NCBI RefSeq assembly: GCF_036365525.1
Contig: NC_090384.1
Span: 40,631,883-40,695,882 of the forward strand
Direction: 5' to 3'
Length of the DNA stretch: 64,000 bases
DNA from: Heterodontus francisci
Taxonomy: Eukaryota
Made by a program: the position numbers and the translations under genes. The stretch's first letter is position 1. Each line of letters begins with the position of its first letter. Shown here one piece after another: positions 14,539 through 61,208 of the stretch. The notes under the pieces were generated by a model, which had not been told where the DNA came from, ran no database searches, and was given only the letters and a program-made list of their open reading frames with translations.

Positions 14539-14627
14539 CTAGGATAGGAGGAGGCCTCCCTGGCTGTAGACTGATTCCATTGGACACAGTGAAGGTGGCA
14601 AACAATTCGACTGATACATGAAGAGAC
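14539..14627 (-). CDS. VWCE: Terminal coding exon, end of TIL domain: (G)LFMYQSNCLPPSLCPMESVYSQGGLLLS*
   Basis: Acceptor ttttatag, phase 1; supplies the last two TIL cysteines; TAG at 14539-14541. Confidence 0.88.
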
Positions 14628-14769
14628 CTATAAAACAGGAGAGGAACAGTATAATTGGCATAAGCACCTCTAAATTAGGGAATGTAAAGCCAAGATCCCA
14701 GCATCCATTAACCTAAGCTGAAAAGTGTGTGATGAGGATGTTGAATTAGAACAGGATGCCTCAATTTTG

Positions 14770-15035
14770 AAGACCTCTGGTAAATCTCCTTTTAACCTTC
14801 TCTAGGCTAAGGAGAACAATCCTAGATTTTTTCCACATAACTAGAATCCCTCATCCCTGTATCATTTAGAAAATCACCTCTGCATTGATATCCTTCCTAA
14901 ATTGTGGTCCCTAGAATTGGATTCAATACTCTAGCTGAGACCTAACTAGTCATTTATAAAAGTTTAGCATAACTTCCTTGTTTTTGTACCCTATGCCTCT
15001 ATTTATAAAGCCAAGGTTTCCATATATATTTTTAA
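14770..15035 (-). mobile_element. Old CR1 fragment
   Basis: Decayed reverse match to the GIEYK / LVRPxLEY / RRLRGD region. Confidence 0.6.
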
Positions 15036-15598
15036 AACAGCTATAAGTAATGGTGATCTGGTAGCTTGGAACTATCTTGGAAATAGTGCAATCAGTCATA
15101 TAATGGTAACTATCAGGCCTGAAGGGGAGAACAGGGAATCACAAACAACAGTTAACTCTGAAAGGATCAAGAGGTGTTCCAACTAAAAGCAGATTTTGGT
15201 GCGACAGTATTGGAGGATAAGAATGTACCAGAATCAAAAAATGAATATTTAGTCAGAAGGATTGGTCAAAGCCAGAGATACAGAAAAGATTAGACATTAC
15301 TGAAGGGAAGAAATTTATTTCTGTCCATACAGGACAGCGGTAATGAATAAACTAATGGATTAAAGCTAGATAAATATACAAGTCCTAGATGGTGTCCAGC
15401 TGAGAATATTACAATAGGTGAGGACATTGGTGATGCATTAGTTATGATTTTCCAAAGCGCTTAAGATTTAGGGATGGTACTAGATGATTTATATGCATGA
15501 TTTTCAAAAGGCATTTGACAAGGTACCACATAGGAGGCTTTTTACAAAAATTAGGCATGTGGTATCAAACGAAATGTAGCTGCAGAGATAGAGAAGTA

Positions 15599-16410
15599 TG
15601 TTACGACCAGGTGCGAAAGGTGTCTGGGGGCTGTTACTATCTTCACCTGGTCTTATTGTAACAGGGTTTTATTTTTCAACACACTGTGTTTTGAGCTCCC
15701 CTTTTGGGAATTCTTGTTCACAGCTTTCCAATTAGAAGGCAAAGAAACCAACACACCAGGTTTTCTCAGGTTTAAAGGAGAAAAGTGAAATTTTATTAAA
15801 ACTTAAACTCTAATACGGTTAACACCTACGGATATATGATGTGCCCACGCTAGCATGCACACGCGATACACACATGCAAATAGGGACTGAAAAGAGCAGA
15901 AGAAAATATAAGTAGAACAGTTTGAGGCAATGTCTTGTTACTGTTTCTCGAGCTCGCTGTAGTCCTTGATTGAAGATATGGTCTTGCGTTTCGTTGTGTC
16001 CCAGTATTCTTTGTAAACCTTGTTTACGTAGGAGATTTTTCTCTCTAAGTTTACGTGTCTTCACAAGATTCAGTTCCATGGGAAAGAGATGGAGTAGGCA
16101 GACAGGAGAGGAGGTAATACTCGCTTCAGTTCCAGGAGAGAGCCTCATTCCATGAATACGGCTTTGTCTCAGTTCAAATCCTGTTTTCTCCAATTTAAAA
16201 CTCTCAATTCAAACCTCTGCAACAGTCAATTAGTCATGTGACTAAAACTGGTCTGACCACTTCTATGTATCGGGAAAGCAACTACGGGTCGCCATTGTCT
16301 GGTACTATGCAAATGTCTTTCCAGTCAGGGGCTTGCAATTTTAAGTTTTAATGTTCATGTGGCAAAATCATGTGTACCTCAGTCTTGGCAAGTGGGGGGT
16401 TTGCCTGAGA
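15599..16410 (-). mobile_element. Solo LTR, family A, inserted in an old CR1 (about 15250-15598)
   Basis: tgttacgaccagg...gcctgaga, colinear with 171-954; flanks agta/agca are a possible 4-bp TSD. Confidence 0.75.
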
Positions 16411-58375: not shown

Positions 58376-58458
58376 CGTACAGAGACAGACGACACAGGGG
58401 TCAGCAGCTGAGATGTAATACCCTCCATCTTCCAGAATCTGACCATCGTACAGACACA
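58376..58458 (-). CDS. VWCE: Exon, VWC first half: (V)CLYDGQILEDGGYYISAADPCVVCLCT
   Basis: 83 nt, phase 1-0, tttccag acceptor, gtaggt donor. Confidence 0.92.
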
Positions 58459-59895
58459 CTGGAAAGACGAATAAATAAACCGGCTAGAAAACATGGTAAC
58501 TGTCAATCACATGGCAGATTAAAAAAAAACTCAAGTCATTCACCAGACACCAGACATTAAAACACATTGAACGAGTCACACACTAGATTTAAATATGACA
58601 GGCTTGATGCTGTGTCAGTAACATTCTACAGGGGAGGGGGTGGGGTGGGGAGGGGATCATAACTCCTGCTCAGTCAGTTGTTGGAAGTTGTGGGCCAGTC
58701 ATCTGGAGGATTCTGTGAAGGGATCATTTCAATGACCAACCTCATGAGTATAAATGCAGCGAGCTGCTTCTATGCAACAGCTGCCCAGAGGTAGCTTGCT
58801 GGGTTAAGTCAGCATTAATTGGTATCATTTTCACCTGCATATTACAACAGTGACTACACTTCAAAAAGTACTTCATTGGCTGTGATGTGCTTTGAGATGT
58901 CCAGCGGTCATGAAAGGTGCTTTATAAATGCAAGTCTTTCTTAAGACCGATGGATAATGGGCAACCCGGAGGCTGCCTGCTAGCACTCAGCTATGTCATT
59001 GGGGAGGGATTTACACAAACAGAAGTCGAGGTGAGCCCAAGGAAACAGTGATCTAAATGTTCTTTTAGGCCTGGTGGAGTATTCCTGTTTCTCCTGGTCT
59101 CACAAAAATATGTTTTACACTAATCTGTCTCTGCTCAGCAGCTCATTAAAATGGCTTTGTGCTCCTATGTTAATCATAAGAACCTGATTTATATTTATTC
59201 ATGAGGTTTCTGCTTGAGTTGGGCACACATCTCAACCACCCGAGAAAACAGTGGCATTAAAATGACCATGGGGCATAAAAGAACAATAGTGCACAGCTTG
59301 GATTCTAATTCCAGCTCAGTCCAGTTTCTGTCGGACAGAGAAAATTAAAATTCTTCCTTATGATTTCAAGTGCACAATTTGTGCAGAATCACAGGCACCA
59401 GACTAACCCTACCAGTGGGTGGCACTACACATTCCCAAACCATAGCTCAGTGCGAACAGCAACTCATTGCCTCCTTGAAAAATCCCCTTAATGGGTATGG
59501 CACGTTACATTCACTGGAGCACTCCAACTCAAAGAAGATCCTAATAACCAGTCAGTCACAAAATCGGCTTGAAATATTTACCCCAAGGTTCTAGGCAAAA
59601 TTAACGTTTGAACGCATCACCAAAACACAGACAAACTTGGTAGAGAATCAGCAACAAAAATTTACTTACAAATATGATGACGTTGTGCTATAAATGTACA
59701 ATACAGCTGTGCAGGGTTATTGTTTGAACACTGCACCTCTCTCATAAATTGAGTTGGCATCAAGGCAGTGATGGAAGAGGATGAAAGGTCTACAAGTAAA
59801 GCTCATAGTAAAACACACAGAAGATGCAGGTACAGAGTTTGCTGCTGCTGCTACTGCCTCCCCTGCTAGTGACAAACAACTTTGTTTGATCTTAC

Positions 59896-59989
59896 CTGAG
59901 CAAGTGGGGCAGCATTCACCAGGCAGGGAATGGGGGTGATCACAGGAAGGTGGGTCACAGATCAGAACTTCACAGCTCACTTCTCCAAG
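59896..59989 (-). CDS. VWCE: Exon, VWC second half: LGEVSCEVLICDPPSCDHPHSLPGECCPTCS
   Basis: 94 nt, phase 0-1, gaacag acceptor after a long pyrimidine tract, gtaaga donor. Confidence 0.93.
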
Positions 59990-61125
59990 CTGTTCAAGAG
60001 AGATGGGCAGAGAATCAGAGGAGGGTGGTATGAAGAGAAAACGAGAGAGAGAGTTACAGAGAAGGGAGGTGGAGAGAGGGAACTGGAATGTTAGAGAGAC
60101 ACAGACCGAGACAGACACAGATGGAGAGACAGAGAAAAAGACAGGTACAGAGAAAAGGTGGAAAATTACAAAGCAGCATTTCCCAGAAAGCACAGGAGAT
60201 ATACAAAAGAATAATATGACAGCACCCACACATCACAAAACATTCCATTAGCACAGACTTGAACTCTGCTCCTGTCTCTAATTCAAAAAACTCTGTCAAA
60301 TACAGATGCCAATGATAAAACATCTAATGCTAGCATTCTCCTATACTGGGCTTGATGGTTGTCAATTACAAATAAATTGCTAATTTGTAATATGTCCAAC
60401 TTAAGCACAAGTTACGTATATAGTAAAGCTGCCTCTTCTCTGGCTCATGAAACACTCAGCTACAAGACAGGTTTGCTGCAGAGTAAAGCAACCCCAGAAC
60501 TACAAATACTTACTATGCATCTCACATCAACATTCAGCCCTTGTCCTGTGCTTAAGCCTCTCTGACTTATCTGATGTGAAGTCCCCACCTGCTCACTATG
60601 AACAGAATTTTATTCTGCCCTTGGAGACAAGCATGGAGGGGGAGGGGGAGGGGGGGGGGTGAGAAAGAGGGGGAAAGCAAAATGGCAGGGGGCACCATTT
60701 CAGATGTTGCCCAGCACCTCTGCCATTTTGGCCAGGACAGGGAAGGCCGAGGCCAATTGAGACCTTTAAGTAGCTGATCCCATGTCCATCTTCACTCCCA
60801 ACAAGCAGATCCGACTGACCAAAGTGGCGATTATCCACATGGAGAGCGGGGAGGTGCTTTGAATTCGCCTGATACAAGAACAAAGTGATGAGCTGGAGGA
60901 GCAGAGCTGAAAAAGGACCTTGAAGAAGTTCTTCAATTGGCCTGCCCACAGTGAAATGGCTTCAGGGGTCCGATGGAGAGCCGAGGAGAGGTCTCGCCCC
61001 TACCTTCAGGCCTGCAGCTGGGACACCCGTTGCAAGAATAAAATGCAGCCCATAGTATCTCAGTATTCTCCTACAATAAATGTCACTGCTCCTTCCTGCT
61101 CTCAATCTTGTAACGAGAAACTCAC

Positions 61126-61208
61126 TTGGCATTTGCAGTGGTAGCAGGGTCGGTTTTCAGGCTGAAATGATTGACCATTGGTGACCTTCCTCCCTTCATA
61201 GTTGCAAT
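61126..61208 (-). CDS. VWCE: Exon, VWC first half: (D)[27 protein letters not shown]
   Basis: 83 nt, phase 1-0, ctttcag acceptor, gtgagt donor; [12 protein letters not shown] matches recalled VWCE. Confidence 0.93.

Follow-up and report, generated by a model that had tools for sequence, protein, structure and literature searches.

A shark VWCE gene with a complete kielin-type VWC-VWD-C8-TIL tail, a likely third branch of the KCP/BMPER family

Introduction

KCP (kielin/chordin-like protein) and BMPER (Crossveinless-2) belong to a small family of BMP modulators in which an array of VWC repeats is followed by a VWD-C8-TIL unit. Here we describe a gene of the shark Heterodontus francisci whose product ends in the same way; the window analyzed is a stretch of 64,000 nucleotides (C14:40631883-40695882 of the 6.0-Gb genome, G000), and its 17 exons are almost certainly the 3' half of a single gene for a long form of VWCE. 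KCP enhances BMP and suppresses TGF-beta/activin signaling (PMC10315795), and the first VWC of BMPER binds BMP (PMC6270503, PMC8377005). BMPER differs from the shark protein in having five VWC repeats, a GDPH self-cleavage site and a heparan-sulfate-binding C-terminus (PMC6456722); Asp-Pro cleavage at GDPH releases a diffusible inhibitor and stabilizes VWDs (PMC6456722, PMC10880436), and mutation of the BMPER site causes skeletal disease (PMC6456722).

The human protein, of 99 kDa, is predicted to be secreted and has repeats of the chordin type (PMC8140436). Studies of cancer and of mTOR feature VWCE, and the papers surveyed agree on neither a family nor a ligand for it. Fibrillin, LTBP-1L/2 and VWCE have a FUN-EGF pair in common (PMC3794157). 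From the sequence comparisons below, VWCE is likely a third branch of the KCP/BMPER family.

Gene organization and transcripts

The 17 exons run on the minus strand from 61208 to 14539 and splice into one open frame with a single stop at 14539; all 17 acceptors are AG, the donors of all 16 introns are GT, and the phases agree. The frame encodes VWC7, VWC8, a linker, VWC9, VWC10, VWC11, VWD, C8 and TIL, in that order. When each exon was scanned alone against Pfam (E up to 1), seven gave VWC-type matches, three VWD (two of them over the cut-off), one C8 (E 1.4e-17) and one TIL (E 3e-4), with no match for four exons and only a weak, irrelevant one for the linker exon. A previous reading of the window from its letters only (the sequence-only reading) had proposed a 17-exon frame of this kind, and the motifs that it quoted are present, the part that fails being a linker of 200 residues. 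The features are as follows.

61126..61208, minus strand: VWC7 first half (DCNYEGRKV...); single match in G000, identical to P0291 from residue 954
59896..59989, minus strand: VWC7 second half; splice model, Pfam VWC E 1.2e-5
58376..58458, minus strand: VWC8 first half; splice model, domain layout
54702..54807, minus strand: VWC8 second half; splice model, Pfam
53595..54041, minus strand: linker exon, 149 aa, Ser/Thr/Pro-rich (36%), no Cys; splice model, contigs, RefSeq model
52600..52682, minus strand: VWC9 first half; splice model, Pfam, inclusion inferred from exact 263-nt contig spacing
51410..51506, minus strand: VWC9 second half; splice model, Pfam, contig spacing
50467..50549, minus strand: VWC10 first half; splice model, Pfam, contig spacing
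43626..43766, minus strand: VWC10 second half and start of VWC11 (CVHQ); splice model, Pfam, contigs
42428..42593, minus strand: remainder of VWC11; splice model, Pfam VWC over cut-off, contigs
40452..40573, minus strand: VWD exon 1, with GQSH where the GDPH self-cleavage motif would be; Pfam E 3e-13, contigs
36436..36610, minus strand: VWD exon 2; splice model, Pfam
26940..27087, minus strand: VWD exon 3, CGLCGNFN motif; Pfam E 2.2e-12
25126..25291, minus strand: end of VWD and start of C8; splice model
22030..22210, minus strand: C8 exon, without two cysteines conserved in KCP and BMPER; Pfam E 1.4e-17
21579..21592, minus strand: alternative terminal exon of RefSeq isoform X2 (coding part only); annotation, not reads
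20454..20579, minus strand: TIL exon; splice model, Pfam E 3e-4
14539..14627, minus strand: last coding exon, end of TIL and stop; splice model, RefSeq model

Two donors after the linker exon keep the frame, at 53595 (149 aa) and at 53442 (200 aa). Four of six sequence runs (X1-X4; two studies, two samples), all probably RNA, were compared over 40300-60060. In each of the four, the linker-exon contig pieces reach no further than 53593-53595, and nothing covers the bin 52821-53479, so the linker is 149 residues long and the donor at 53442 is ruled out; the RefSeq model likewise uses 53595. Record 3 of X1 (5402 nt) carries 54041-53593, 43765-43625 and 42592-42428, record 14 of X3 carries part of the linker exon, then 43765-43625, 42592-42428 and the first VWD exon (40573-40449), and record 19 of X4 carries the linker exon and 42592-42428. 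In both X1 and X3 the distance from the linker piece to the next listed piece is 263 nt, exactly that of the three small intervening exons (VWC9 and the first half of VWC10), which are not among the alignment pieces listed and whose presence is read from this offset. By arithmetic and not alignment, the sequence preceding the linker exon measures 3465 nt in X1 and 3428 nt in X4, where the full model has 3226 coding nt, and X1, at 5402 nt, would finish two bases beyond the predicted end of the TIL exon. The linker bases differ at 12 of 449 positions in X1 and X4, and at 0-1 in X2 and X3. Intron-free, collinear contig pieces are the outcome expected of splicing, and contigs do not prove a single molecule. 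The junction between the linker exon and the exons below 52682, on which the earlier one-gene proposal turned, is thus bridged in X1, X3 and X4, with X3 reaching the first VWD exon.

The window frame is identical to residues 954-1749 of P0291 (XP_067902930.1, 'kielin/chordin-like protein isoform X1'), the front half of which is FUN-EGF-VWC. The EGF exons expected upstream are found, with VWC exons and on the same strand, spread over the next 215 kb, and the FUN exons, the sole match in G000, lie at C14:41.01 Mb. The full model has 1749 residues (190 kDa), with FUN, EGF repeats (eight or more of them calcium-binding, cbEGF), 11 VWC and VWD-C8-TIL. Its N-terminus is hydrophobic and, judged by eye, signal-peptide-like, and the protein is likely secreted. 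Structure-based searches are not decisive: in the ESM Atlas the tail falls in generic VWFD and BMPER-like clusters and the front in generic EGF clusters under 0.9, and the PDB returned only multi-VWD proteins and NELL2-type VWC matches.

Assignment to VWCE

A homolog search with the C8 exon gave 12 matches from 14 candidates, all of them shark proteins with a VWD and ten also with EGF families. Shark residues 701-1075 (VWC3-8) are 63-69% identical to the bony-type VWCE models (12/12) versus 34-37% to KCPs (5/5), with the amphioxus and hemichordate proteins at 41% and 39%, respectively. With the cysteines masked, shark VWC3-8 match VWC2-7 of caecilian, lungfish, paddlefish and bichir VWCE in order and by wide margins, and KCP gives no ordered run of best matches to these repeats. 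The sequences compared include no mammalian VWCE, the human VWCE sequence being that quoted in the sequence-only reading.

The shark protein and bony-vertebrate VWCE (URG11) share the FUN-EGF front, the cbEGF repeats, the collinear VWC3-8, a Ser/Thr/Pro-rich segment after the eighth VWC and a DDB1-region chromosome. To this the shark protein adds VWC9-11, VWD, C8 and TIL, and has a mass of 190 kDa against 99 kDa for human VWCE (PMC8140436). The VWC after DCNYEGRKV that had been singled out as extra is present, but it is not shark-specific, as bichir, paddlefish, lungfish and caecilian VWCE each have one.

The VWCE synteny that the sequence-only reading proposed as a check is present on the same contig, where a TKFC-type (Dak1-family) gene lies at 41.39-41.43 Mb, about 0.4 Mb away, and DDB1 (45.63 Mb), a cytochrome b561 gene (45.78 Mb) and TMEM138 (45.89 Mb) lie 4.6-4.9 Mb away. 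In human, TKFC, CYB561A3 and TMEM138 lie together, and DDB1, cytochrome b561 and TMEM138 are immediate neighbors of TKFC; on C14 the TKFC-type gene is separated from these three by about 4.2 Mb, which is a local rearrangement. In pig and dog, DDB1 and VWCE fall within one mapped interval (PMC11331376, PMC9744541).

Relationship to KCP and BMPER

VWD-C8-TIL units were aligned and analyzed with FastTree on 120 rows, and with careful trees on 43 rows from which nine near-redundant core rows and 68 of the 89 multi-VWD units had been dropped (three proteins were unextracted). With LG+C20, the single-VWD proteins separate from VWF, mucin and zonadhesin-type units (99/95), the KCP clade has support of 95/85, and the shark, amphioxus, hemichordate and sea-urchin long forms group together (95/94), with KCP as their sister branch, weakly (85/70). 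LG+G4 gives 100/96 for the single-VWD split and 97/95 for KCP. The shark unit thus groups with KCP/BMPER, as the sequence-only reading had supposed. In approximately unbiased (AU) tests, a clade of sharks and vertebrate KCP is rejected (p 5.7e-6), as is nesting of the long forms among zonadhesin-type units (p 0.013) or among VWF/mucin units (p 0.004).

All shark/ray (10/10) and invertebrate (3/3) long forms lack the same two C8 cysteines; the pair is absent from none of 18 KCP/BMPER units and from two of 89 multi-VWD units. By analogy with VWF, these two cysteines probably form one disulfide. The tail is KCP/BMPER-type in layout, as first read, and departs from BMPER in having no GDPH, being acidic and lacking this cysteine pair.

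KCP and BMPER-type genes are found elsewhere in the same genome, as two single-unit loci taken from C8 matches. One, at C27:48.47-48.55 Mb, contains numerous VWC exons; identity to gecko KCP is 56-83% over the exons of its final VWC, VWD, C8 and TIL. That at C5:198.03-198.12 Mb has five VWC plus VWD, C8 and TIL, which is the layout of BMPER (PMC6456722). No named BMPER was among the sequences retrieved, and we take the C5 gene to be BMPER from its architecture. Like the shark protein, KCP has a long VWC array ending in one VWD-C8-TIL; it differs in having no FUN or EGF region and 18-37 VWC (PMC10315795 and domain scan), in keeping GDPH (16/17) and both C8 cysteines (17/17), in its VWD introns and in being a separate gene on C27. 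BMPER also shares a VWC array with VWD-C8-TIL, and phase-1 introns just before VWD and before TIL; the C8/TIL intron is the only one common to all three genes, and the pre-VWD intron is common to VWCE and BMPER. The shark gene is not the KCP ortholog, which by the sequence-only reading would have refuted its proposal had it been one, given its position outside the KCP clade, the KCP gene on C27 and the presence of EGF repeats; nor is it the BMPER ortholog, with 11 VWC and EGF repeats against five VWC without EGF, and a BMPER-type gene on C5.

The sponge Oscarella has a protein, P0182, of about 20 VWC and one VWD-C8-TIL that sits at the base of the KCP clade, and the KCP/BMPER family may therefore predate bilaterians.

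Distribution and loss of the tail

The matches listed in the homolog searches include models with the VWD tail from at least 13 shark and ray species; the records P0009, P0012 and P0147 are partial at the front. One of these searches gave 2003 matches, of which 120 were listed, 100 of them fibrillin-type. Bony-type VWCE models, from two bichirs, three sturgeons, paddlefish, lungfish and caecilian (eight named species plus P0086), have no VWD in any of 16; the matches listed contain no VWCE from mammals, birds, reptiles, teleosts, chimaeras or cyclostomes. Behind the linker, the paddlefish protein retains three VWC, and the final one scores highest against shark VWC11 (80 vs 54); beluga retains half of one.

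The amphioxus protein P0018 has the same complete architecture (FUN, about 21 EGF, 14 VWC, VWD, C8 and TIL), and amphioxus has a separate KCP (P0137) beside it. Shark VWC1, 2, 3, 5 and 6 best match the same-numbered amphioxus repeats. The VWC of hemichordate P0167 (10/14 best matches) and sea-urchin P0218 (5 of the last 7) are in register with P0018. A search with the amphioxus FUN region, restricted to long proteins, gave two candidates and no matches, and so no further invertebrates.

Since the shared loss of the C8 cysteine pair and the tree link sharks with amphioxus and other invertebrates, the long form is very probably ancestral, and bony vertebrates would have lost the tail in steps, with paddlefish read from its repeats as an intermediate. 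The sequence-only reading had also taken the full-length form as ancestral, which the amphioxus, hemichordate and sea-urchin relatives support. It had called the short form a mammalian truncation; the shortening is real, but being seen in bichir, sturgeon, lungfish and caecilian it extends across bony vertebrates and predates mammals. By this distribution, the loss would have followed the divergence from sharks and either preceded the radiation of bony vertebrates or come early in it.

Proposed function and alternative interpretations

GDPH is missing from all 16 shark/ray records and kept in all three invertebrate long forms. The shark VWD-C8-TIL unit is acidic, with a net charge of -19 (other sharks and rays -8 to -20; most KCP units are also acidic) against +12 for the BMPER-type gene in G000, and heparan-sulfate tethering through the shark VWD is therefore unlikely, short of a local basic patch. 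By analogy with KCP and BMPER, binding of BMP-family ligands by the VWC repeats is somewhat probable, and some repeats would capture BMP/TGF-beta ligands and tune their availability in the matrix. It is possible, and we suggest tentatively, that unlike BMPER the shark protein has neither VWD self-cleavage nor a heparan-sulfate tether in the VWD, the fibrillin/LTBP-like FUN-EGF arm being the more likely matrix anchor instead.

Two reports count against a BMP role. Of the five VWCs in CV2, four show no BMP binding (PMC6270503), and the one mechanistic study of the human protein among the papers listed assigns VWCE to the control of mTOR at lysosomes (PMC10733324). A third paper, PMC7643001, says that VWCE binds BMP and cites a general VWC study; its wording mirrors the CV2 result and it was not counted. 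With the same gene and ancestry, the protein could instead be a matrix scaffold, structural or adhesive in role, that does not modulate BMP, which is unlikely but to be taken seriously: the FUN-EGF pair is common to fibrillin and LTBP (PMC3794157) and is followed here by eight or more cbEGF repeats, most VWC repeats do not bind BMP (PMC6270503), and both the GDPH and the basic VWD of BMPER are missing. Against a scaffold, KCP/BMPER units, and not those of mucins, VWF or zonadhesin, are the ones among which the VWD unit falls, and KCP, with the same tail, acts on BMP and TGF-beta (PMC10315795). Taken together, long-VWCE identity, an ancestral long form and ligand modulation make a combination that we hold with modest confidence. 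A fuller picture is possible, if doubtful: VWCE may be an unrecognized, deuterostome-old third KCP/BMPER branch, a hybrid with a FUN-EGF arm of fibrillin/LTBP type and a VWC-VWD-C8-TIL arm of kielin type that thereby holds BMPs on the microfibrils of the matrix; sharks would have kept it whole with self-cleavage disabled, bony vertebrates would have cut it back stepwise (paddlefish being intermediate), and the cancer- and mTOR-linked human VWCE would be a stump whose original job was BMP control.

The identity and history of the gene have counterevidence of their own. No VPS37-family match was found on C14, and DDB1 is some 4.6 Mb from the shark gene and not adjacent. The transcript comparison consists of contigs, from runs guessed to be RNA, and is confined to 40300-60060. 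In the trees, sharks and invertebrates are joined at no more than 88/93 under LG+G4, the branch leading to the shark VWD is long, and BMPER is represented by a single row and invertebrate Cv-2 by none; VWCE, KCP and BMPER-type genes have different introns within the VWD, which fits an old split and adds no support for the link. That bony vertebrates have no VWD is read from the gene models of eight named species, with no mammal or teleost among them, and such models can be truncated: that of sawfish, P0015, likewise ends ahead of the VWD. The hemichordate (P0167) and sea-urchin (P0218) models are incomplete and have no EGF half. Placement of the shark rows alone with BMPER (p 0.23), with all KCP (0.17) or on the multi-VWD side (0.19) is not rejected by AU tests.

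These unrejected shark-only placements would also suit a derived long form, in which EGF-VWC proteins fused independently to KCP/BMPER-type tails in sharks and in invertebrate deuterostomes and the short form is ancestral; in addition, no lamprey, hagfish or chimaera long form is among the matches listed, and the shark VWD is without GDPH where the invertebrates have it. This is very unlikely. The loss of the same C8 cysteine pair in 13 of 13 long forms is an independent character that closes much of the gap left by those placements, the clade has support of 95/94, and origin from vertebrate KCP is rejected; the same-numbered VWC matches between shark and amphioxus, and a paddlefish with three post-linker VWCs of which the last best matches shark VWC11, also argue for an ancestral long form.

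A conserved intracellular role in the recruitment of KICSTOR/GATOR1 and control of mTORC1, as reported for human VWCE (PMC10733324; a term search of its text finds no mention of BMP, signal peptide or isoforms), with the VWD tail incidental, is extremely unlikely in view of the signal-peptide-like N-terminus (by eye), the disulfide-rich extracellular domain types and a tail conserved across sharks, rays and amphioxus. That two adjacent genes, VWCE and a KCP-like gene, were wrongly joined, or that this is simply KCP as its RefSeq name (kielin/chordin-like protein) has it, has next to no chance, as contigs bridge the joint, the exon at 52682 begins mid-codon inside a VWC, the true KCP is on C27 and the VWD tail recurs in models of 13 shark/ray species.

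Annotation and significance

The sequences are already in RefSeq, mostly misnamed 'kielin/chordin-like' and some 'VWCE-like'. XP_067902930.1, the other shark and ray models and amphioxus P0018 have the same architecture under automatic names, with VWCE orthology and a third branch unstated. We found no published account of a VWD-bearing VWCE or of its link to KCP/BMPER, in a search covering few subscription journals, and gene-family tables could hold the orthology; kielin-like skeletal proteins are named in sea star, with nothing on VWCE (PMC5460417). Shark, amphioxus, hemichordate and sea-urchin proteins annotated as 'kielin/chordin-like' are in many cases likely to be VWCE, which its lack of the C8 cysteine pair distinguishes from KCP annotations of that name. 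A third branch would be added to a small family of BMP modulators, together with a dated domain loss and a natural VWD that has lost its GDPH site. VWCE as a shortened KCP/BMPER member raises the direct question of whether its VWC repeats bind BMP or TGF-beta ligands.

Other features of the locus

The linker has a basic RSPRR stretch at about 53930-53955 (minus strand), where a proprotein convertase might cut and so part one half of the protein from the other; a similar motif is present in seven of 11 other shark/ray proteins, with Trp for Arg in two. In the C8 exon (22030-22210, minus strand) this species has tyrosine at the position of another C8 cysteine, and its VWD-C8-TIL unit has an odd number of cysteines (23), perhaps with a free thiol. 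The short terminal exon of isoform X2 (21592, minus strand) ends the protein after C8 and drops TIL, and the listed models of other sharks finish with the TIL exon. At about 14540-14570 (minus strand) the final residues are in another frame than in other sharks, the neighboring frame encoding their tail, as after a 2-nt deletion; this shift lies after TIL and is either a lineage-specific change or an assembly error. Introns, including 56540-58277 (minus strand), contain reverse-transcriptase fragments at very high repeat depth, which from their motifs we take to be of the long interspersed nuclear element (LINE) type. A tandem repeat of period 36 occupies 61711-62081, in the intron above the first exon of the window.

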